A DNA stretch of 32,000 nucleotides from Geobacter metallireducens GS-15 (GTDB lineage Bacteria > Desulfobacterota > Desulfuromonadia > Geobacterales > Geobacteraceae): positions 1,560,001-1,592,000 of the forward strand of contig NC_007517.1 of assembly GCF_000012925.1 (NCBI RefSeq). The letters run 5' to 3'. The position numbers were made by a program, and so were the translations under genes. Under the pieces are notes generated by a model, which was not told where the DNA came from, searched no databases, and was given only the letters and a program-made list of their open reading frames with translations. Shown here piece by piece: positions 9,997 to 19,243 of the stretch (positions are counted from its first letter, which is position 1; each line of letters opens with the position of its first letter).

Positions 9997-10862
9997 AGCG
10001 TGTGCTGCTGGCTCTTGTGCTGGCCGCTGCATTTTTTGTGGTAAATTTCTCCCTTGACCGACAGATGGCTAATCGGCCGGTGGTGGTCAAACTGGGCTAT
10101 TCCCCCAGTGGGCAAGTGCTGAAGCTTGTCGCCGGGGATTTGAAACCGCTTGTGGCAGAATTTAATGTGCTCAGAGTGGTGATCTACTTCGGTTCATTGG
10201 TAGAAAAATGGAAAAGTCGTATTCAACTTCCCCCTGAATATCCCAATATGTTTCGCACAATCGAAACCGCTGTTCGTCTCGACCCTTACAATATGGATGC
10301 TTATTATTTCGCACAAGCTGCTTTTACCTGGCAGGTGGGCCATGCCTCCGATGTCAATTATTTACTTGACTATGGCATGAAGTATCGCACCAGGGATTGG
10401 CAACTGCCGTATTTTGCCGGATTTAATGCAGCTTATTTCTTGCATGAGTATGATTCTGCCGCTACCTATATGCAGCGGGCAGCCAGGCTTTCAGGTCACG
10501 ATCTGTTGACTAATTTGACTGCGCGCTATTTTTACGAATCGGGCCGCGAAGATTTGGGAATTGCATTCCTGCGCGATATGATCGCACGAACTACCGACAA
10601 AAAAGAGCGAACTATTTACGAATTAAGGTTGAAAGCACTTATCGCTGTACAGAAACTGAACAGCGCGGTTCGACGCTATCGGGCTGAGCACGGTGCATTG
10701 CCGGAGAACTTGCAGGCTCTTGTTAAAATCGGCTATCTCCTCAGGATTCCCGATGATCCCTATGGTGGTGAGTTCTTTCTGGACAAACGTGGCATGGTCC
10801 GTACCAGCAGTCAGATGGCTATGGCCCGTTCAACGGGCAAAAGTGGTGGGGAAAATGACTGA
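9993..10862 (+). CDS. Membrane-anchored periplasmic helical-repeat (TPR-like) protein with a GspG-pseudopilin-like C-terminal motif
   Basis: The ATG at 9993 overlaps the upstream stop (ATGA). A single N-terminal TM is present (MKRVLLALVLAAAFFVV). The C-terminus LPENLQALVKIGYLLRIPDDPYGGEFFLDKRG resembles the GYL..(I/L)P.DPWG..Y motif of T2SS major pseudopilins. There is no prepilin leader. Confidence 0.6.
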   Translation: MKRVLLALVLAAAFFVVNFSLDRQMANRPVVVKLGYSPSGQVLKLVAGDLKPLVAEFNVLRVVIYFGSLVEKWKSRIQLPPEYPNMFRTIETAVRLDPYNMDAYYFAQAAFTWQVGHASDVNYLLDYGMKYRTRDWQLPYFAGFNAAYFLHEYDSAATYMQRAARLSGHDLLTNLTARYFYESGREDLGIAFLRDMIARTTDKKERTIYELRLKALIAVQKLNSAVRRYRAEHGALPENLQALVKIGYLLRIPDDPYGGEFFLDKRGMVRTSSQMAMARSTGKSGGEND

Positions 10863-11745
10863 TAACATTGAAATTGACATTGCCAATTTAGGTAAAACCT
10901 ATCGTGGCAAGAAACACACTATCGTGCAAGCCTTGAAGGGGTTGAATATTGCAATCCGTAAAGGTGAGGTGTTCGGCTTTCTCGGCCCTAACGGGGCAGG
11001 GAAAAGCACCACTATCAAGATACTGACGGGGCAGATCAAAGGGTCTGAAGGTAGCGCGACTATTCAGGGGGTGCCTGTTGAAGATCCGACCAGCCGTAAG
11101 AAGCTGGGATACCTGCCTGAAAATCCCTCGTTCTATGATTTTTTGACCGCCAGGGAATATTTGCGATTGGTTGGGAATGCCTATGGGATGTCTCCTAATG
11201 CCATCTCTTGTTCAACAGGAGAGGTTCTTGCAAAACTGGAACTTGAGCATGCCGCCGATCGACCCATTCGTGGTTACAGCAAAGGGATGGTGCAGCGGCT
11301 TGGCTTGGCTCAGGCAATGCTTGCCGACCCAGAGTTACTGATTCTTGACGAGCCGATGAGCGGCCTCGACCCACTTGGTCGGGCACTGGTTAAAGATTTG
11401 ATTAAAGAACTGAAACAGGCTGGGAAAACCATTTTTTTCAGCACACACATCACTGCCGATGTTGAGATAGTTTGCGACCGGGTTGGAATTTTAGTGGGTG
11501 GTGAACTAAAGGCACTGGACAGGGTGGAAAGTATTCTAGACCAGGGTATTGATGGGTATCGTTTGTCATTTGCCGCAGCAGAGGAAAGGACCATTGAGCA
11601 ATTAGTTGCTGTTGATGAGCTCAAGGCAACACTGGAACACATTCTTGCGCAAGGAGGGCGAATTGAGCGAATCGAACCATTGCGTCGAGACCTGGAGCGT
11701 TATTTCCTTGATGTGGTAAAAGGCACAAACCATGAACATTCGTAA
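10855..11745 (+). CDS. ABC transporter ATP-binding protein (ABC-2 / NosF-CcmA-like)
   Basis: The ATG at 10855 (MTDNIEIDIANLGKTY...) overlaps the upstream gene by 8 nt. Walker A is GPNGAGKST, the signature is YSKGMVQRLGLA and Walker B is LLILDEP. The ORF-track start at 10693 is an out-of-context extension. Confidence 0.88.
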   Translation: MTDNIEIDIANLGKTYRGKKHTIVQALKGLNIAIRKGEVFGFLGPNGAGKSTTIKILTGQIKGSEGSATIQGVPVEDPTSRKKLGYLPENPSFYDFLTAREYLRLVGNAYGMSPNAISCSTGEVLAKLELEHAADRPIRGYSKGMVQRLGLAQAMLADPELLILDEPMSGLDPLGRALVKDLIKELKQAGKTIFFSTHITADVEIVCDRVGILVGGELKALDRVESILDQGIDGYRLSFAAAEERTIEQLVAVDELKATLEHILAQGGRIERIEPLRRDLERYFLDVVKGTNHEHS

Positions 11746-13447
11746 ATCTTTTCAGGTAATGCTGCTTTGGATGATAGTGCTGGGCATCTTTTATCCGGCT
11801 ATATTTGCCGGGTTAAATTCGGTGGATGACCAGAAGATGCTTTATGCCTTGGGAGAATTGCCGAATAGAGCTTTACTGGACTGGTTCCGACCTGGACAAA
11901 GTTTTTATTATCGACCGTTGTTGTCGTTCACTTTTCGTCTCGATTATCTGCTTTGGGGGCAGGAAGTCAGTTTCTATCATCTGGAAAACATTTTAATTCA
12001 TGGTGCCAGCGCCACCTTGATTTTTTTCATCCTCCGGCAACTTGTTTCTCTCCAAATTCCGCAACAAAAGGACACCGAATGGCCCCTGATTGGGGCATTG
12101 CTGTTTGCGCTGCATCCGATAGTAACTGAATCGGTTAACTGGATATCTGGACGAACCGATTTGCTCGGTACTTTTTTTGTCTTGTCTGCCACTTTAGTTT
12201 TATTGCAGTCCGCTTTGCGTCGTCGGTTGATATTGGTAATTGCCGCAGCTATTTTGTTGTTTTGTGCCATCTTTTCCAAAGAAGTTATGGTGTTTTCTAT
12301 CCCTGCAGCCGCATTTTTGCTTTGGCGATGGAGTGTTGACGCGCCGACTTCTTGGCGGATTAAATCACTTACAGTACTTCTTATGCCGTTTTTTTTCGGA
12401 GGTTCGGCTTTCATCGCGCTTCGCTGGTTGTTTTATGGTGCGAGTGCGGACTTGGATCGTCTAATTTTCAAATATTATTACAGTGCCTACGACACGGTAC
12501 GAGTCTTTTTCAAGGTGTTGGGGTTCTATGGGAAAAAGATTGTTGCACCGTTACCGCTCAATTTTGCAATTATGCAGGTTAGTGATCACTATGTCTGGCT
12601 GGGAATTGTGATTTTTATTTTAGCTGTTTTGCTGTTTTTTCTACGCCGGTCCGCCACCGACTTGATTCTGGTGGGGTGGTATTTGATCTTGCCCGGCATT
12701 CTCATCGCATTGATTGGCTTGGCCTGGACGCCGTTGGCTGAACGCTATGTTTATCTCCCGAGTGCTTTTGTTGTCATGGGGATAGCTCTTTATGGCTCAA
12801 GCGTTCCATCGCAGCGATTACAAAAAATAATGTTAATTGGTTTGTCGCTGTTTTTATTGCCAATCAGTATGGCAACAGTAAATCGTAATTTTATATGGCA
12901 AGATAATACCAAGTTATATGCAGATAGTCTGAGTAAGTCCCCTGAATTTGCTGCGATGAGCAATGAATTGGGTATTGCTTTAATTGATGAAGGCAAGCTT
13001 GCTCAGGCAACCCAAATTTTGCAAAAAGGGAAACAACTAAAAACAGCATCGGTGCTCCTTTATATCAATCAGGCTCGTATTTTTATGGCCCAGGGGGACC
13101 TGGCCGGTGCTAGGTCTGAAATGATGAAGGTTTGTTTCGATAAAAATGCTGCCGACACGGAGGCTCTAAAAATGTTGGCAACAATTGATGAACAACGTTT
13201 GCATAATGGTGGGCAAAGCGAAAGCATTATGCTCGAATTGCTAGATACTTACCAAGTATTAATAACAAAAACAAAAAACCCTTACCTTGAGTACCGAGTT
13301 GGTCAAATATTTTTGTCTACGGGTAAACATCAAGACGCTGCTGATTATTTTAGCAGGGCTTATGTACATGCACCTAAAAATGCTTATTACCGAGAAGCTG
13401 CTGGAAAGTTGGTTCGTAAATTGAAGAACAGTGATAAGGAGGGCTGA
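11732..13447 (+). CDS. GT-C fold membrane glycosyltransferase (PMT/TMTC/DUF1736-like) with a C-terminal TPR domain
   Basis: There are about 11 TM helices. An acidic DD motif (LNSVDDQKM) follows directly after TM1. The pattern YYRPLLSFTFRLDYLLWG...FYHLENILIHG is typical of TMTC-like proteins. The C-terminal ~180 aa are TPR-like. The gene overlaps the upstream gene by 14 nt. Confidence 0.7.
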   Translation: MNIRKSFQVMLLWMIVLGIFYPAIFAGLNSVDDQKMLYALGELPNRALLDWFRPGQSFYYRPLLSFTFRLDYLLWGQEVSFYHLENILIHGASATLIFFILRQLVSLQIPQQKDTEWPLIGALLFALHPIVTESVNWISGRTDLLGTFFVLSATLVLLQSALRRRLILVIAAAILLFCAIFSKEVMVFSIPAAAFLLWRWSVDAPTSWRIKSLTVLLMPFFFGGSAFIALRWLFYGASADLDRLIFKYYYSAYDTVRVFFKVLGFYGKKIVAPLPLNFAIMQVSDHYVWLGIVIFILAVLLFFLRRSATDLILVGWYLILPGILIALIGLAWTPLAERYVYLPSAFVVMGIALYGSSVPSQRLQKIMLIGLSLFLLPISMATVNRNFIWQDNTKLYADSLSKSPEFAAMSNELGIALIDEGKLAQATQILQKGKQLKTASVLLYINQARIFMAQGDLAGARSEMMKVCFDKNAADTEALKMLATIDEQRLHNGGQSESIMLELLDTYQVLITKTKNPYLEYRVGQIFLSTGKHQDAADYFSRAYVHAPKNAYYREAAGKLVRKLKNSDKEG

Positions 13448-13448
13448 T

Positions 13449-14291
13449 TTGCTCGCTTTTCTCCAGCTTGCACGTCCTCATCAGTGGTTGAAAAATATTA
13501 TTCTCTTCTTTCCGCCATTTCTAGGAGGGGTTCTGCTTCTGCCTGGAGAATGGCAAAAGGGTGTTGCCCCCTTTGTGGCTTTTTCCCTCACCTCAAGTGC
13601 TACCTATGTATTCAATGATCTACGCGATCGAGATAATGACCGAGTTCACCCACGCAAAAAACATCGTCCATTGGCAGCTGGATTGATCTCAATCCCTGCC
13701 GCTATTTGTTTTGCGCTGGTGATGTTGATTGGCTCATTCGCCATCGGTTATACGGTTTCATTTGTTTTTTGTGGATGGTTGCTTGCGTATTTGGGGGTAT
13801 CCTTCGCGTATTCTCTCGTTTTAAAGGATCAGCCGGTCTTCGATATTTTCTGCATCGCCTCGGGATTTGTTTTTCGGGTTTTTGCCGGAGGCGCGGCCTT
13901 TGGCGTCAAGGTGTCTGATTGGCTCTTTCTAAGCGTACTACTGCTGGCCGTCTTCCTGAGTTGCGGCAAACGTCTGAGTGAAAAGAAACTGCTTGGCTCT
14001 GCTTCTTGTGACCATCGCAAAGTGTTGGAGACGTACCCCGCCGGAGCGTTAGAGGGGTTTATGTATATCTCAGGCGCGGCGGTGCTGGTCACTTACACTC
14101 TCTATGCCATTACCCAACACCGCTTGATATATACTGTTCCACTTTGCTGTTTTGGCTTATTTCGCTACCTTCTTATCGTTGAGCGAGGGCAAAGTGGTGA
14201 TCCAACCGATATGCTGATGAAAGATCCGGTGCTTTTTTTGACAGGTTTAACGTGGACCTTGTTTGTAGGTTGGGGAATTTATGGGTTCTAA
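13449..14291 (+). CDS. UbiA-superfamily polyprenyl-phosphate phosphoribosyltransferase-like enzyme (DPPR synthase family)
   Basis: It has the N-terminal box ARPHQWLKN and the Asp-rich motif NDLRDRDNDRVHPRKKHRPLAAG, with about 8 TM helices. The TTG at 13449 has AGGAGG 6 nt upstream. The GTG at 13431 is the ORF-track alternative. Confidence 0.7.
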   Translation: MLAFLQLARPHQWLKNIILFFPPFLGGVLLLPGEWQKGVAPFVAFSLTSSATYVFNDLRDRDNDRVHPRKKHRPLAAGLISIPAAICFALVMLIGSFAIGYTVSFVFCGWLLAYLGVSFAYSLVLKDQPVFDIFCIASGFVFRVFAGGAAFGVKVSDWLFLSVLLLAVFLSCGKRLSEKKLLGSASCDHRKVLETYPAGALEGFMYISGAAVLVTYTLYAITQHRLIYTVPLCCFGLFRYLLIVERGQSGDPTDMLMKDPVLFLTGLTWTLFVGWGIYGF

Positions 14292-15111
14292 TACTTTTTC
14301 GCCAAGTGCATTGCAGGTCGTACTGAGTCGTATAAGCTACTTTCGGCGAATATGGGAATTTAGGGATCTTTTCTTGGTTTTTGTGTGGCGCGAATTTTCT
14401 GTGCGTTACAAACATACACTGATTGGTGCGGCTTGGGCTGTAATTCAACCATTGTCAATGATGCTGCTGTTTACTTTTGTCTTTAGCTTTGTGTTAAAAA
14501 TGAAAGTTTCCAACTACCCCTATGCGGTTTTCTTTTATTCAGGCCTTCTCCCCTGGATGTTTTTCGATTCTGCCATAAAGTACTCTGTCCCAAGTTTTAC
14601 GGCCCATTATGGGCTGATTACTAAAATCTATTTCCCTCGTGAAATTATTCCTTTTTCTTGCATATCTGTGGCAGTAGTCGACTTTTTGATATCATTTGTT
14701 GTTTATCTGTTTTTGTTGTTGTTTTTTGACATTCCGTTGACGGTAAATATTTTTTATCTGTTACCGTTGCTGTTTTGTATGATTTTGTTTATTGCTTCGG
14801 CTTCACTGATTCTCGCCTGTTTAAATGTCTTTTACCGCGACGTACGACTTGCTATCAATTTCATCATGCAACTCTGGTTTTTTGCAACACCGGTGTTTTA
14901 CAGCACAACACAAATTAAAGGAACGTTGAAATACGTTCTGTACCTTAATCCCATGACTTTTTTTATTGAAGGCTTTCGAAGTTGTACTCTGTACGGTCAG
15001 CCCGTAGATCTTGGTACTTTGACTCTTTTTACAGTTTTGACTTTTACCGCGTTGTTGATAACTTTAAAGCTTTTTGTTCGGGTTGAGAGGTTATTTGCTG
15101 ATGTCCTCTGA
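14281..15111 (+). CDS. Polysaccharide ABC exporter permease (Wzm/TagG/KpsM, ABC-2 type)
   Basis: The N-terminus has the characteristic pattern RRIWEFRDLFLVFVWREFSVRYKHTLIGAAWAVIQPL. There are 6 TM helices. It is followed by its cognate ATPase. Confidence 0.88.
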   Translation: MGSNTFSPSALQVVLSRISYFRRIWEFRDLFLVFVWREFSVRYKHTLIGAAWAVIQPLSMMLLFTFVFSFVLKMKVSNYPYAVFFYSGLLPWMFFDSAIKYSVPSFTAHYGLITKIYFPREIIPFSCISVAVVDFLISFVVYLFLLLFFDIPLTVNIFYLLPLLFCMILFIASASLILACLNVFYRDVRLAINFIMQLWFFATPVFYSTTQIKGTLKYVLYLNPMTFFIEGFRSCTLYGQPVDLGTLTLFTVLTFTALLITLKLFVRVERLFADVL

Positions 15112-15802
15112 TGCCTTGTTGATATTTTCTGATGTTTGGAAAAAATACTCTCGTGCAGAAGCATTCCATCGTTCAATCCGCGAAGACCTAAGCTGTTTTC
15201 TCCGGTCTGATCTTAATCTTCGAAATAAGGACGAATTCTGGGCATTAAAAGGGGCGAATTTTTCATTGCATCCAGGGGAATGTGTCGGCTTGACCGGCCC
15301 TAACGGAGCAGGGAAAAGTACAATTTTGAAACTTGTTGCGCGTGTAACGTCTCCGAGTTCCGGAGATATTCGACAAACGGCGAAAGTTGCACCTCTGATT
15401 GAGGTTGGGGCGGGTTTTCATCCTGATTTGACCGGTAGACAAAATATCTATATGAACGGGACAATTATAGGGCTGTCTCTTTCTGATATTCGCAAACAGA
15501 TGACAAGCATTATCGATTTTTCTGAATTGGCTGAATTCATTGATACGCCTGTAAAAAAATACTCTTCTGGAATGTATCTAAAGCTTGCAGTTGCTATCGC
15601 ATTCCATAGTCCGGCAAAAATTCTATTAGTTGACGAGATCCTTTCGGTGGCGGATGAGTTGTTCCGGAATAAATGTCTGGAGAGGATTAGACGTTTCTGT
15701 GAAGCTGGCGGGGGAGTTGTGCTCGTTTCGCATGATCAAAGGATACTCAATTCAGTAACTGACCGGACGATCAGGCTGGTTAGTGGCGAAATTGTGTCAT
15801 AA
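15101..15802 (+). CDS. Polysaccharide ABC exporter ATP-binding protein (Wzt/TagH-type, short form without a C-terminal glycan-binding domain)
   Basis: The ATG at 15101 overlaps the wzm stop by 11 nt. Walker A is GPNGAGKST, the signature is YSSGMYLKLAVAIA and Walker B is ILLVDEILSVAD. The TTG at 15074 is an alternative start. Confidence 0.88.
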   Translation: MSSDALLIFSDVWKKYSRAEAFHRSIREDLSCFLRSDLNLRNKDEFWALKGANFSLHPGECVGLTGPNGAGKSTILKLVARVTSPSSGDIRQTAKVAPLIEVGAGFHPDLTGRQNIYMNGTIIGLSLSDIRKQMTSIIDFSELAEFIDTPVKKYSSGMYLKLAVAIAFHSPAKILLVDEILSVADELFRNKCLERIRRFCEAGGGVVLVSHDQRILNSVTDRTIRLVSGEIVS

Positions 15803-16847
15803 ACCATTGCATATCTTATTTTTTCGTCATAGCCTTCTTGGGCGCGGTGGGGACAAGATGGTCGTTTGCCAGGCGAATGCCCTTGCTCGGCGCGGCCATC
15901 AAGTAACTATCCGTACCGCAACTTTAGCCACTCCCTTTTCTTTGGATGATCGGATTGAAATTAACCTTACGGGGAGCAGTTCAGTTGCTGCTACCTTGAT
16001 GGATTTGTTTAAGGGGAGGTTTAGCTTCGACCTGTTGATCGTTGATATAATTCCCCTGGCAGTATTGGCTGGGATTCGCTTTGGCCGAACAAAGGTAATA
16101 TATTACGTTCAAGATTGGGATGTTAGTTATTATCGTTCGCTTGCTTTTCGTTCGTTGATTCGCTTGCTGTATTTCGTTGAGAGATCTTTTTTGCGGATTC
16201 CGGTCATTGTGGTTTCAGAGCACTTGCTCGGTAAGATTGGTCGTACTGGAATAGGTGCCACTTATGTTGTAGAAAACGGCATTGATTTAACTCTCTTCAA
16301 TAGTAAAGGTCGTCTTCACCCTGCGTTCGCTCCTGGTCATATCCCGACATTTCTGCTGTTCATCAGAAATGATTGGCGCAAAGGTTCTGATTTAGCTTTG
16401 AAAGTTGTGAAAAAGCTGGCGGATAGATACCCGCATGCTTTTGGAGTGGTTGCTGTTGGGAATCGACCAGCCATTAGGCCTTCGCAGATCGATTGGATTG
16501 ACAAGGGTTTTATGGACGAGCGACAGATTGCGGACCTGATGAAACAGTGCGATCTTTTTCTCTATCCGTCCCGACATGAGGGGTTTGGCCTTATGGCTTT
16601 AGAAGCTTTTGCTTGTGGTTGTCTGGTGGTGACAACCACGGCAGTAGGCTTTGCTCACGATATTGAAAATTCCCTGGTTGCCGAAGTAGATGATGAACAG
16701 GGACTTTATTCCCGCCTCTGTTGTTTGTTGGAAAAGCAAATTGAAATTGCACCGTTGGTAAAAAAAGCCGAAGAATTTGCTTCTGAGCACCCGCTGGAAC
16801 TGTGTATGGACAGGTTCTGTTCAGTGATTGAAGAACTGAATCAATGA
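15783..16847 (+). CDS. Glycosyltransferase, GT-B fold, family 4-like
   Basis: The N-terminus has ILFF..SLLGRGGD...ANALARRGHQV. The C-terminus has the EX7E-type motif SRHEGFGLMALEAFACGCLVV. The start is uncertain: GTG 15783 or TTG 15807. Confidence 0.8.
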   Translation: MAKLCHKPLHILFFRHSLLGRGGDKMVVCQANALARRGHQVTIRTATLATPFSLDDRIEINLTGSSSVAATLMDLFKGRFSFDLLIVDIIPLAVLAGIRFGRTKVIYYVQDWDVSYYRSLAFRSLIRLLYFVERSFLRIPVIVVSEHLLGKIGRTGIGATYVVENGIDLTLFNSKGRLHPAFAPGHIPTFLLFIRNDWRKGSDLALKVVKKLADRYPHAFGVVAVGNRPAIRPSQIDWIDKGFMDERQIADLMKQCDLFLYPSRHEGFGLMALEAFACGCLVVTTTAVGFAHDIENSLVAEVDDEQGLYSRLCCLLEKQIEIAPLVKKAEEFASEHPLELCMDRFCSVIEELNQ

Positions 16848-18118
16848 ATTACGAGAACTTCGCACAGTTATTAGAAGACCGTTACAGCGACTTTTGCCAA
16901 CGTTGGCCATTGTCGAGCTTTGTGCTGGACCATTACCTTCGCGCGAATTTGTTGCAACGGCCTGCCATTATCAACCAGCACAGGAATTATTTACAGCAAA
17001 CCATCCGTTACGGGAAAATAGTTGATTTACTGTCGCGTGGTTTTCCTAAAATCATCAAGAATTCAGATGACAAGCCCTCCGTTTTGCTTGCAGCACCGTT
17101 AATTTTTAGTTTTCCGTGGTTGGCAAAAGAGGTTAGGGACCACAATTCTTCAAAACTCTTTACTCTGAATTTTTTTGGACTTGCAAAATACTATCGGCAA
17201 CTTAGGCGTATGGGTTATTCCTATGCGTCCTTATTTGACCCATTGTTTAAAGTTGAGTGGAGCAAGGCTCTAGGTCAAGGTATGAAAACTTTGACCGAAA
17301 CAGACCGTATGTTGAGTTGGTCTGGCTGGGATAACCTTGAGTTATTGACGGAGCAAACAGTTTCCGGATTAACTACACGGTTATCGCGACTTAATTGTGT
17401 TTCAGTTGTTATGTTGCGAGATTTTTTTTGGTATGAGGCGGCTTTGATCCTTGCCTGTAAAAGAGCTGCTATTCCCTGCCATGTAGTTGCCCATGGTTAT
17501 CCACATTGCGACCCTGAAAATAGTGAATGTTTTGGTTATCTGCCTTTTCGCGGGGATACGCTGTATTGCATGAGCGAAGAATCCTATCACCAGCTTTCAC
17601 CTTGGGTTGAAGACAAGCATTGCTACTCAGTAAGGTTGTTTTCCAATACACAGAAAGTTAATGGTGAGGGAATTTTATTTATTTCATCTTCAGTGGAAGA
17701 AGTTGGTCTTTTAGATGATAAGTATCGGTTAGCTGTTTATAAAGGTTTACAGGCGGCTGCGAACAAACTCAACTGTCGCGTTACAGTCCGATTTCGCGAT
17801 GACGAGCAACTTGACAAAAAAATCAAGCAAGCTGAATCTTTCAATTTCAGATGGACTGTCAAGAATAATATCTCATTGGACGAAGACTTGAAAAATAACA
17901 GATATGTTTTTGGCTTTGGTTCAACAGCACTTTTTTTAAGTCATATGCTTGGGCATCCTACGTATAATGTGAGCAGCTATGGATCGATTGATGGTGTTGA
18001 AAATATAGTTCCAGAAAAGATCCCTGATGTTGTTTCTCATGTGCCTGTGTCTTTAGGATTTGTAGACAATAGAACAACTTTTGCCGATATTTTCTGGAAA
18101 TCCCTTCTCCATGGATGA
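16844..18118 (+). CDS. Hypothetical protein (424 aa, cytoplasmic, no motif I can assign); possibly a sugar- or phospho-transferase from context
   Basis: It is a long ORF in the operon frame with an ATGA overlap to the GT4 gene. Its codon usage is AT-rich, like its neighbours. No TM segment or signal peptide is present. Confidence 0.6.
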   Translation: MNYENFAQLLEDRYSDFCQRWPLSSFVLDHYLRANLLQRPAIINQHRNYLQQTIRYGKIVDLLSRGFPKIIKNSDDKPSVLLAAPLIFSFPWLAKEVRDHNSSKLFTLNFFGLAKYYRQLRRMGYSYASLFDPLFKVEWSKALGQGMKTLTETDRMLSWSGWDNLELLTEQTVSGLTTRLSRLNCVSVVMLRDFFWYEAALILACKRAAIPCHVVAHGYPHCDPENSECFGYLPFRGDTLYCMSEESYHQLSPWVEDKHCYSVRLFSNTQKVNGEGILFISSSVEEVGLLDDKYRLAVYKGLQAAANKLNCRVTVRFRDDEQLDKKIKQAESFNFRWTVKNNISLDEDLKNNRYVFGFGSTALFLSHMLGHPTYNVSSYGSIDGVENIVPEKIPDVVSHVPVSLGFVDNRTTFADIFWKSLLHG

Positions 18119-18139
18119 ACTCTGGTCACTAAGACTTTT

Positions 18140-19243
18140 ATGAACCTTCGACTGATTAAAGCTGCGGATGCCATTCTCGGACGGGTAGCGACAGTCTTGC
18201 TTCCGGCGCCGGTTGTTGGTTGCTATGGGACTTCAATCCGATCGGTCCTTTTTATTCGTCCCGGTGGGATTGGAGATGCTGTGCTCCTGATCCCAGCGAT
18301 TCTTTCCTTCAGGAACAAGTATCCTAAAGCACGGATAACGGTTCTTGCTGAGAAGAGAAATGGTGCGGTTTTTACTCTATGTTCAGTTATCGATGAGATT
18401 TTGCTCTACGACAATAATGGCGAACTGTTTATGGCACTTCGCGGCAGCTACGATGCGGTAATAGATACCGAGCAGTGGCATCGGTTGTCGGCCGTAGTGG
18501 CGCGTATGACTTGGGCGCAGATTTTGATAGGTTTCGGCACAAATGTGCGTTCTCGTCTTTTTACGCATCAGCTTGACTATGAGCAGAGTGATTACGAAGA
18601 GACTAGTTTTTTGCGTCTTTTGACCTCGCTTGGAATTGCCGTAACGCAAACCTCTGTGCCGTTTCTGACGGTTCCTACTCCTGCGGCGTCTGTTGCTGAG
18701 GTGCTTCTTGGTGAACTTGCTGACAGAACCTTTGTTGTGATTTTTCCTGGAGCCAGTATTCCGGAACGTCGGTGGGGGGCGGATAAGTTTCGGCAGGTTG
18801 CGAAACGGTTATCAGCCAAAGGTGTCAGTGGGGTAGTTGTCGGGGGGGAGGATGACAGGGGGGAGGGGGAGCGCATTGTCGCTGATACCGGATGGCTGAA
18901 TCTGATGGGGGAGACGTCGTTACAGGAAACTACGGCAATCATCGAAAGAAGCTCCCTCCTCGTCAGCGGCGATTCCGGCATCCTCCACATCGCCGTAGGC
19001 CTCGGCATTCCCACGGTCTCCCTCTTTGGTCCGGGGAGGGAAAAGAAATGGGCGCCCCGTGGCGACAATCATATTGTCATCAACAAGCATCTCCCCTGTT
19101 CTCCTTGCACCACCTTCGGCTATACGCCAAAATGTCCCATTAACGCTCGCTGCATGGCGGAAATATCCGTTGACGAGGTTGAGCAAGCGGTATTGACGCT
19201 TCTGGACCGGAAAAATTTTGACAAGCACCAACAAAAACCTTGA
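18140..19243 (+). CDS. Glycosyltransferase family 9 (heptosyltransferase-like)
   Basis: GT9 hallmarks are present: IRPGGIGDAVLLIPAILSFRNKYPKARITVLAEK, PGASIPERRW and GDSGILHIAVGLGIPTVSLFGP. Base composition switches from AT-rich to GC-rich inside the gene. Confidence 0.85.
   Translation: MNLRLIKAADAILGRVATVLLPAPVVGCYGTSIRSVLFIRPGGIGDAVLLIPAILSFRNKYPKARITVLAEKRNGAVFTLCSVIDEILLYDNNGELFMALRGSYDAVIDTEQWHRLSAVVARMTWAQILIGFGTNVRSRLFTHQLDYEQSDYEETSFLRLLTSLGIAVTQTSVPFLTVPTPAASVAEVLLGELADRTFVVIFPGASIPERRWGADKFRQVAKRLSAKGVSGVVVGGEDDRGEGERIVADTGWLNLMGETSLQETTAIIERSSLLVSGDSGILHIAVGLGIPTVSLFGPGREKKWAPRGDNHIVINKHLPCSPCTTFGYTPKCPINARCMAEISVDEVEQAVLTLLDRKNFDKHQQKP

Follow-up and report, generated by a model that had tools for sequence, protein, structure and literature searches.

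What do the genes downstream of the type IV pilin genes of Geobacter encode: machinery that exports a polysaccharide, or enzymes that modify the pilus itself? We examined this question in a 32,000-nucleotide stretch of the Geobacter metallireducens GS-15 chromosome (contig NC_007517.1, positions 1,560,001 to 1,592,000, forward strand), which we call the window and to which coordinates refer unless a locus number is given. A preliminary description of the window had singled out two adjacent genes as a candidate lipid-linked pentose glycosylation system. Both open reading frames (ORFs) are present on the plus strand as described, and gene calls in other assemblies give the same products of 571 and 280 amino acids (aa):

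11732..13447, + strand: predicted GT-C fold glycosyltransferase with a TPR domain (from its DD motif, structural model and homologues)
13449..14291, + strand: predicted polyprenyl-phosphate 5-phosphoribosyltransferase (PPPRS, the same as DPPR synthase) of the UbiA fold (from NCBIfam, PDB and motif evidence)

We put at about one half the probability that this pair forms the enzymatic core of a system for periplasmic glycosylation at the pilus locus, of the type represented by the pilin glycosyltransferase TfpW and by the three-component pentofuranose systems. The testable parts of the earlier, hedged interpretation all held, namely the UbiA family, the GT-C fold with TPR repeats, the absence of DprE1 and DprE2, and the link to pilA.

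The UbiA-fold enzyme is a predicted phosphoribosyltransferase

The second gene had been attributed to the family of Rv3806c, the decaprenyl-phosphate phosphoribosyltransferase of mycobacteria, and its protein does group with the DPPR synthases. It matches PF01040 in Pfam (90.1 bits) and passes the NCBIfam model NF008978 (220.9 bits against a cut-off of 207); it scores 216.8 bits with NF008977, under that model's cut-off of 234, and 169 bits with a third DPPR-synthase model. Models for quinone, heme, chlorophyll and archaeal-lipid prenyltransferases reach at most 52 bits (heme O synthase 45, UbiA 34.5), and on these scores a quinone or heme prenyltransferase identity was rejected. The best PDB match is the DPPR synthase of Mycobacterium tuberculosis (8j8j_D, E = 6.1e-38), aligned over the full length (residues 10-282 against 17-298), and the second best is an archaeal UbiA protein at 4e-08. 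Thus, neither the scores nor the structural match show the clustering with quinone or heme O enzymes that the preliminary description had named as evidence against its assignment. Close homologues are named decaprenyl-phosphate phosphoribosyltransferase in RefSeq, and homologues reach E = 2.7e-177.

The catalytic motifs agree with these matches. The motifs RPHQWLKN and NDLRDRDND, which had been picked out earlier, lie at residue 9 and at residues 56-64 (loop II), and GKRLSE lies at 173-178 (loop IV); the latter two align with NDVRDVEAD and GKRYAE of 8j8j. Both the loop II pattern N-D-x-x-D-x-x-x-D and the loop IV pattern R-x-x-E (KRxxE) are therefore present, as defined for PPPRS enzymes in PMC11127046. 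Mutants of ORF15 from Citrobacter youngae show that the loop II residues are needed for normal activity, and mutants of the loop IV arginine and glutamate are still active (PMC11127046). Earlier work cited in PMC11127046 found the corresponding residues of Rv3806c to be needed in vitro.

With the evidence from NCBIfam, PDB and motifs in agreement, we consider the assignment of this protein as a polyprenyl-phosphate phosphoribosyltransferase of the Rv3806c family to be well supported at the level of sequence. Unlike ORF15, the 280-aa protein carries no fused HAD phosphatase or other extra domain, and its match to the UbiA-family model NF006088 (PRK08238; 482 aa) is confined to the C-terminal part of that model (191-459). 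The TTG start at 13449 given in the preliminary description is favoured over a GTG at 13431 by an AAGGAGG ribosome-binding site at 13434-13440, and independent gene calls share this start.

The neighbouring enzyme combines a GT-C fold with a TPR domain

The protein encoded by 11732-13447, which is 100% identical to a Geobacter metallireducens protein, had been described as having about 11 transmembrane (TM) helices, a DD motif after the first of them and a C-terminal TPR domain. In an AlphaFold2 model of the full length (pLDDT 91.8), a membrane part of about 11-12 helices leads into a domain of helical repeats at 392-570; a plain hydropathy scan gives 9-10 strong segments. TPR_2 passes its cut-off of 27 bits with 29.6, and TPR families match residues 395-560. 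The motifs LNSVDDQKM, YRPL and FYHLEN were recovered at 28-36, 60 and 81, respectively, with D32 and D33 directly after TM1 and a positively charged N-terminus. In 41 homologues, the best of which has E = 0, the invariant residues are D32, D33, Y59-Y60-R61-P62, H128-P129, E133, R141, D143, K183 and the W-T-P-x-A-E-R-Y stretch at 332-339.

Pfam assigns the protein to TPR families only, with PMT_2 below the reporting threshold and no PMT family matched, and sequence and profile searches against PDB likewise return TPR proteins only. With the full-length model, the TPR domain dominates Foldseek as well, giving OGT and consensus-TPR (CTPR) structures. We therefore modelled residues 1-392 alone (pLDDT 89.7) to expose the membrane fold without the TPR domain. 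The top 27 Foldseek matches of this model are all GT-C fold proteins and nearly all glycosyltransferases, among them PglB, STT3, ArnT, Pmt4, PIG-M, EmbA/B, AftA and ALG3, at TM-scores of about 0.5 (up to 0.54) and with modest E-values (best 1e-3). The alignment with Emb and AftA is at the level of the fold only (TM-score 0.41-0.48, E 0.06-0.5).

The label PMT/TMTC-type, used in the preliminary description, holds in part. Like PMT and TMTC enzymes (GT39, GT105) and ArnT (GT83), the protein has a GT-C_A fold and an acidic pair after TM1; PMT_2 is matched by 19 of the 41 homologues (best 1e-8), some homologues are named "glycosyltransferase family 39" by NCBI, and C-terminal TPR repeats are shared with TMTC. 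Neither DUF1736 nor MIR is matched by any of the 41, however, and DUF1736/TMTC membership was rejected. A further difference from PMT, TMTC and ArnT is that the linked donor synthase is the predicted phosphoribosyltransferase and not a Dpm1- or ArnC-type GT2.

The architecture agrees with that of TfpW, a protein of 646 aa with 11 TM helices, a DDX motif in loop 1, C-terminal TPR repeats and an ArnT-like model, whose gene lies downstream of pilA and whose action depends on a PPPRS (Villela et al., bioRxiv 10.1101/2020.04.19.049825). Both proteins have about 11 TM helices and, on the periplasmic side, DD(x) in the first loop and a TPR domain at the C-terminus, both are encoded with pilA, and the donor pathway of both opens with an Rv3806c-type phosphoribosyltransferase. 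Of the proline motif Y-x6-P-F-x7-P that TfpW and Emb share in periplasmic loop 4, the window protein has the first part only (Y266...P273): Y266-x6-P273 and P275 are invariant in the homologues, a leucine and not a phenylalanine follows P273, and there is no proline seven residues on. Altogether, the model and the motifs make it well supported that this is a GT-C fold enzyme of TfpW-like architecture, with a glycosyltransferase activity that we infer.

A five-gene module is conserved beside pilin genes

The window opens with a partial pilB, followed by pilT, pilC, pilS, pilR, an ISL3 transposase, pilA-N, pilA-C, a run of ten genes and housekeeping genes. The genes closest to the pair are:

8483..8698, + strand: pilA-N, a short type IV pilin with a GFTLIEL prepilin motif; candidate acceptor and marker of the locus
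8751..9092, + strand: pilA-C, the separately encoded globular half of the pilin, with a signal peptide and 25% Ser+Thr; favoured candidate acceptor
9178..9996, + strand: ABC-2 type membrane permease, with a weak PF12679 match and 6-7 hydrophobic segments by hydropathy scan
9993..10862, + strand: membrane-anchored TPR protein with a weakly GspG-like C-terminal region; module member
10855..11745, + strand: ABC ATPase (PF00005, 105 bits), closest to the DrrA- and GldA-like families of NCBIfam

In other assemblies pilA-N is called with PF07963 (N_methyl) and a start at 8489. The ten genes at 9178-19243 overlap or nearly abut and are followed by thrS, infC, pheST and other housekeeping genes. The pair had been placed in an overlapping operon 2.6 kb downstream of pilA; the distance stands, though the tight overlapping run begins only at 9178, 85 bp after the end of pilA-C at 9092. 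A simple scan, which cannot settle operon structure, found no terminator-like site in this 85-bp gap, so a terminator splitting pilA-C from the operon was rejected; one weak sigma-70-like match lies in the gap region at 9154-9182. A single transcript of pilA and the downstream operon is plausible.

To place this arrangement in context, we scanned species-representative genomes with the GT-C alignment, which gave at least 80 loci, and annotated them with the window's own proteins. Close homologues are found in 40 of the 80 listed loci, from Desulfuromonadales/Geobacterales and some metagenome-assembled genomes (MAGs) of Desulfobulbaceae and Desulfobacterales. Together with loci chosen through the UbiA protein, 86 loci were compared; all counts are among the matches listed.

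Across the 40 close loci, the ABC-2 permease, the TPR protein, the ABC ATPase, the GT-C enzyme and the UbiA homologue form a five-gene module beside pilA-N (and pilA-C). The pilA-N gene lies within 2.5 kb in 25 of the 27 close loci that have at least 1.5 kb of upstream sequence, and the gap, usually 400-480 bp, is occupied by an ORF equivalent to PilA-C, of about 118 aa, rich in Ser/Thr and with a signal peptide; in 29 related loci, ORFs of this kind separate pilA-N from the module. The permease is kept within the module in about 32 loci, and the TPR protein stands between permease and ATPase in about 34. Two gene orders are about equally frequent, pilA-ABC-TPR-ATPase-GTC-UbiA, as in the window, and pilA-GTC-ABC-TPR-ATPase-UbiA. 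The GT-C gene thus follows pilA or pilA-C directly in about half of the close loci, and it does so also in L041, L067, L070 and L084. Loci selected through the UbiA protein have the same layout, and one locus, L034, is reduced to pilA-GTC-UbiA.

More distant or divergent loci extend this pattern. More distant GT-C genes of Nitrospirota-like genomes directly adjoin genes for full-length pilins, and in L067 and L070, from such genomes, the order is pilin-GTC-pilin-UbiA. In L046 (8920-16569), two pilA copies, pilA-C, the GT-C gene and the ABC trio precede a convergent metG, and the UbiA gene and polysaccharide genes are both absent; this layout indicates that the GT-C enzyme and the ABC trio remain with the pilin genes though the donor synthase is elsewhere. 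In the distant L041, pilSR, a full-length pilin, the GT-C gene and a GT2 gene are followed by housekeeping genes. In a neighbor-joining tree, which is rough and has no support values, pilin- or UbiA-linked GT-C proteins cluster apart from unlinked paralogues, L084 being the exception. Because synteny is conserved, and rearranged, across at least two phyla, a functional link of the gene pair to the pilus locus is well supported, and this link is stronger than the window by itself had shown, being kept across rearrangements and in distant taxa.

The same comparison bears on whether the two enzymes act together. If they did not, the UbiA homologue would be a prenyltransferase for an aromatic or other acceptor, and an unrelated polyprenyl-phosphate-hexose would serve the GT-C enzyme as donor. 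The pairing of a related GT-C with a GT2 in place of UbiA in L041, and the lack of UbiA in L046, are in line with this, as they show that the GT-C lineage can work with other donor sources. Yet the NCBIfam scores, the PDB match and the motifs all place the UbiA homologue among the phosphoribosyltransferases, and about 30 loci have the two genes side by side or within one module, as do the distant L067 and L070. We regard an uncoupled pair as very improbable.

Several observations concern the module members themselves. The TPR protein ends in an invariant P-x-D-P-Y-G-G-x-F that is weakly like the globular domain of the GspG pseudopilin (T2SSG 17 bits, 4 of 25 homologues matching, PDB GspG chains at E = 0.02). 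The resemblance hints at an interaction between the ABC trio and components of a pilus or pseudopilus; a confident assignment of the TPR protein (TPR298) as a pseudopilin-domain protein was dropped, the T2SSG score and E-value being weak. In L086 (4223-7725), two tandem GT-C copies of 587 and 579 aa stand between ATPase and UbiA, with two pilA-N copies upstream, which suggests that transferase and acceptor were duplicated and diverged together.

Unlinked TPR GT-C paralogues are many and often tandem. Up to seven stand in a row in L050 (2120-16910), and similar arrays occur in L053, L065 and L079, with no pilin or UbiA gene nearby; such arrays are found in MAGs of Proteobacteria, Nitrospirae and Bacteroidetes. 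The pilin-linked clade is one branch within this large, uncharacterised family of TPR GT-C proteins.

Proposed donor pathway and relation to known systems

In the mechanism we propose, the UbiA-fold enzyme would act at the cytoplasmic face and move 5-phosphoribose from phosphoribosyl pyrophosphate (PRPP) onto a polyprenyl carrier, which is probably undecaprenyl phosphate; this step is the well-supported one. The lipid-linked product would then be dephosphorylated by an enzyme encoded elsewhere, the sugar staying ribofuranose, and the donor would reach the periplasmic face, possibly by way of the co-conserved ABC-2 permease, TPR protein and ATPase. We propose this ABC system, energised by its ATPase, as the flippase because it is the only candidate transporter that is co-conserved. 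The DD loop of the GT-C enzyme, for which fold and motifs are in evidence, would finally pass the pentofuranose on from its lipid carrier, with the acceptor bound by the periplasmic TPR domain. That acceptor would be the type IV pilin, most likely at Ser/Thr residues of its PilA-C half, as gene context suggests.

The preliminary description had noted that DprE1 and DprE2 are missing from the window, and Pfam and NCBIfam scans confirm this; nor does the 32-kb window hold an Rv3807c-type or HAD phosphatase or an ORF13-type epimerase. No GtrA-, MATE- or SMR-type flippase occurs in the window or the related loci, where the only transporters of relevance are the ABC-2 permease/ATPase and Wzm/Wzt. 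When the 233 unassigned ORFs of the 40 close loci were clustered, the recurrent families were GT2s and pilB/T/C only. Because no epimerase is linked in cis, the donor sugar is most likely ribofuranose and not arabinofuranose.

In the mycobacterial arabinan pathway, Rv3806c, Rv3807c, DprE1/E2 and Rv3789 supply a lipid-linked pentose to the Emb and Aft enzymes of the GT-C type. The first committed enzyme is of the same family as the one in the window, whose best structural relative is 8j8j; in both cases a GT-C enzyme consumes, or would consume, the lipid-linked pentose, and the Wzm/Wzt pair of the window is of the galactan-exporter type. The Geobacter locus differs in having no epimerases and in its Gram-negative host, in which the carrier is presumably undecaprenyl phosphate.

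In group IV strains of P. aeruginosa, TfpW together with the products of PsPA7_6245-6251 reportedly arabinosylates the pilin, as Kus in 2008 and Harvey in 2011 are said to have described. Compared with that system, the window has no DprE1/DprE2, Rv3807c-like phosphatase or GtrA-like protein in cis, the pair has a conserved ABC-2 transporter and TPR protein alongside it, the pilin comes in two parts, PilA-N plus PilA-C, and the GT-C gene is not immediately downstream of pilA in this genome. Pilin arabinosylation by TfpW is established in P. aeruginosa, and linkage of tfpW to pilA has been reported in several gammaproteobacteria and betaproteobacteria (10.1101/2020.04.19.049825).

A third point of comparison, which the preliminary description had left out, is the three-component pentofuranose systems described for O antigens in 2024 (PMC11127046). 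For C. youngae O antigens, pentofuranose addition by a PPPRS, a flippase and a GT-C enzyme is established, with Wzm/Wzt encoded at the same locus (PMC11127046, PMC11194591); the O1/O2 components are ORF15 (PPPRS-PRP), ORF14 (MATE) and ORF12 (GT136) (Kelly et al. 2024, PMC11127046). Here, too, a UbiA-fold PPPRS with the same catalytic motifs would lead to a PRPP-derived polyprenyl-phosphate-ribofuranose donor, a GT-C enzyme of the GT-C_A type would carry out the final transfer, and the locus includes a Wzm/Wzt ABC exporter. The Geobacter PPPRS differs in lacking the fused HAD phosphatase, the ABC-2 system is the sole transporter candidate in place of a MATE protein, the GT-C enzyme ends in TPR repeats and not in a carbohydrate-binding module, and the locus is anchored to a pilin and not to an O antigen. 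The Geobacter system is not a new kind of system: it is TfpW-like, but epimerase-free, equipped with an ABC transporter and placed beside a split pilin.

Pilin, polysaccharide or other proteins as acceptor

We regard it as an even bet that the pilin, PilA-C first, is the acceptor. Several points weigh against a pilin glycosylation system. The acceptor is assigned purely from gene neighbourhood, and in this window the GT-C gene lies 2.6 kb from pilA-C, behind three module genes and within an operon that also holds Wzm/Wzt, GT4 and GT9. The phosphatase, the epimerase and a GtrA- or MATE-type flippase are not encoded in cis, and likeness to TfpW (AAM52060.1) was judged from its published description and not from a sequence alignment. 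In L042 and L052, UbiA, GT9, a methyltransferase and the GT-C gene occur together with no pilin nearby, and throughout Desulfuromonadales the stretch from pilR to Wzt is syntenic, so that linkage could partly be inherited gene order. The only modification of G. sulfurreducens PilA in the searchable literature, known from secondary citations, is glycerophosphate on Tyr32. Finally, that literature, outside which the primary cryo-electron microscopy papers lie, does not mention glycan density on PilA-N/PilA-C filaments.

The distal part of the operon brings in a different acceptor. Its genes are:

14281-15111, + strand: Wzm (PF01061 match), polysaccharide-type ABC exporter together with Wzt
15101-15802, + strand: Wzt (PF00005 match), overlapping the Wzm gene
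15783-16847, + strand: GT4, in the variable distal part of the operon
16844-18118, + strand: uncharacterised 424-aa protein, in the variable distal part
18140-19243, + strand: GT9, heptosyltransferase-like protein, in the variable distal part

With the same chemistry, pentofuranose side chains could be added after polymerisation, as described by Kelly et al., to a polysaccharide that GT4, GT9 and the 424-aa protein build and Wzm/Wzt export, either the Geobacter "Xap" polysaccharide or an O-antigen-like glycan; adjacency to pilA would then be inherited synteny. In keeping with this, the Wzm/Wzt genes overlap the UbiA gene in the same operon and come after the module in most Desulfuromonadales loci, the C. 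youngae O-antigen loci unite Wzm/Wzt, PPPRS and GT-C, and no pilin accompanies UbiA, GT9 and GT-C in L042 and L052. In these two loci, and in the distant L067 and L070, GT4 and GT9 are again found together with the GT-C and UbiA genes. Moreover, GSU1498-1508 of G. sulfurreducens are described, in secondary citations, as genes for an extracellular anchoring polysaccharide, the production of which needs the ABC ATPase of the cluster.

The module, however, keeps its place next to pilA in loci that lack Wzm/Wzt and glycosyltransferases (L046) or have unrelated gene sets instead (L085, L086, L049), the GT-C gene has shifted to directly after pilA-C in about half of the close loci, and the distant homologues of L041 and L084 have a pilin next to them but no polysaccharide genes. 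The C-terminal domain of the GT-C enzyme is a TPR domain, as in TfpW, and not a carbohydrate-binding module as on the glycan-modifying GT136 and Emb. The distal genes are also poorly conserved: what lies 3' of the module ranges from Wzm/Wzt with various GT2s to TagF/TagD-like genes (L085), toxin-antitoxin insertions (L086) and TPR-GT41 genes (L048, L049, L060), and the 424-aa protein is unique to this genome among the loci compared. For these reasons a glycan acceptor, the chief alternative to pilin, appears somewhat unlikely.

The distal genes gave some further observations. The 424-aa protein has no Pfam or NCBIfam match and no homologue in the 86 loci; its reading as a TagF-like glycerophosphotransferase was rejected, as it shows no similarity to the TagF-like protein of L085. 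The nearest NCBIfam matches of Wzm and Wzt are galactan and teichoic-acid exporters, all below cut-off. The Wzt of the window is short (233 aa), compared with about 429 aa in most relatives (e.g., L014 14289-15575), in which an extra C-terminal region is possibly a carbohydrate-binding module; the difference suggests that G. metallireducens exports another glycan or terminates it in another way.

Proteins other than the major pilin are a further class of acceptor. The GT-C enzyme could be a broader periplasmic protein O-glycosyltransferase with other surface proteins as targets, such as multihaem cytochrome filaments (e.g., OmcE), minor pilins or lipoproteins, the major pilin being at most one substrate. 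OmcE of G. sulfurreducens carries densities interpreted as glycosylation, GT39 and TPR genes adjoin omcE in Geobacter genomes, TPR domains can recruit varied protein clients, and unlinked TPR GT-C paralogues abound. On the other hand, the OmcE filaments reported to be glycosylated have their own adjacent cluster of GT2/4/39 and TPR genes, and the clade that holds the GT-C enzyme of the window is almost always beside pilA. We therefore hold a broad protein substrate range to be quite improbable.

Other genes of note adjoin the module in some relatives. Giant proteins joining TPR repeats to GT41 (OGT-like) domains, a protein glycosyltransferase family, stand next to pilA-N, pilA-C and GT-C in Oryzomonas-type relatives (L049 2970-9042, L060 11761-17915, L048 1506-5318; GT41 up to 341 bits), one of them fused to GT2, a placement in line with a pilin acceptor. 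In L085 (12011-15581), genes 3' of the module encode a TagF-like protein (PF04464), a TagD-like cytidylyltransferase (PF01467) and a CDP-alcohol phosphatidyltransferase, which points to glycerophosphate chemistry, the same as that of the modification reported on PilA Tyr32.

Relation to the xap cluster and implications

The genes 3' of pilA in G. sulfurreducens go by the name of xap (extracellular anchoring polysaccharide) cluster; it comprises GSU1498-1508, and its ABC ATPase gene, xapD, is GSU1501, according to secondary citations (PMC3495685, PMC9070056). By position and annotation, the window operon corresponds to this cluster, a correspondence absent from the preliminary description, and by position the ABC ATPase gene at 10855-11745 is the counterpart of xapD. 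The orthology of GSU1501-1503 is positional, as no G. sulfurreducens orthologues were among the matches listed by protein searches and the genome scan. The two clusters share an ABC ATPase and polysaccharide-type genes, and xap is the sole published functional label for this operon. The published reading differs from ours in that it is of export of an extracellular anchoring polysaccharide; the searchable literature names no GT-C enzyme, phosphoribosyltransferase or pilin-modification link there, and it mentions neither these enzymes of the present locus nor pilin glycosylation in Geobacter.

A stronger form of the pilin hypothesis would make the five-gene module a dedicated pilin-modification machine misread as a polysaccharide exporter. 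The ABC system would flip polyprenyl-phosphate-ribose or its 5-phosphoribose form, PilA-C would be ribosylated or phosphoribosylated, and part of the published xapD phenotype, in which cytochrome anchoring, biofilm and current are lost, would arise from unmodified pili rather than from lack of an exopolysaccharide. We consider this stronger form unlikely.

Geobacter type IV pili have been central to a long dispute over extracellular electron transfer, and mutants in this part of the chromosome have been the basis for inferences on pilus function, on cytochrome secretion and anchoring, and on biofilm conductivity. If PilA-C or PilA-N were glycosylated, pilus surface chemistry and recognition by antibodies and phages would hinge on a modification that nobody looked for, filament-filament and filament-mineral contacts would likewise depend on it, xap mutant phenotypes would need re-reading, and heterologously expressed "e-pilin" would lack a native modification. 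Pilin pentofuranosylation of the TfpW type would reach beyond a few gammaproteobacteria and betaproteobacteria into Desulfuromonadales and Nitrospirota, and an epimerase-free variant containing an ABC transporter would join the PRPP-derived extracytoplasmic glycosylation systems. New here is the comparative genomics of the module beside pilA-N/pilA-C, in an operon previously read only as a polysaccharide export cluster.

Composition and mobile elements of the pilA region

The region from 8000 to 18000 is an island of low GC content (41-48%, compared with 54-61% in the flanks) that spans pilA-N, pilA-C and the whole operon, as expected for variable or horizontally exchanged surface-structure loci. 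An ISL3-family transposase gene (PF01610, 264 bits) at 6967-8262 is inserted between pilR and pilA-N, leaving about 220 bp before pilA-N. Short-read assemblies of the same organism stop about 250 bp upstream of pilA, which is expected for a repeated insertion sequence element.

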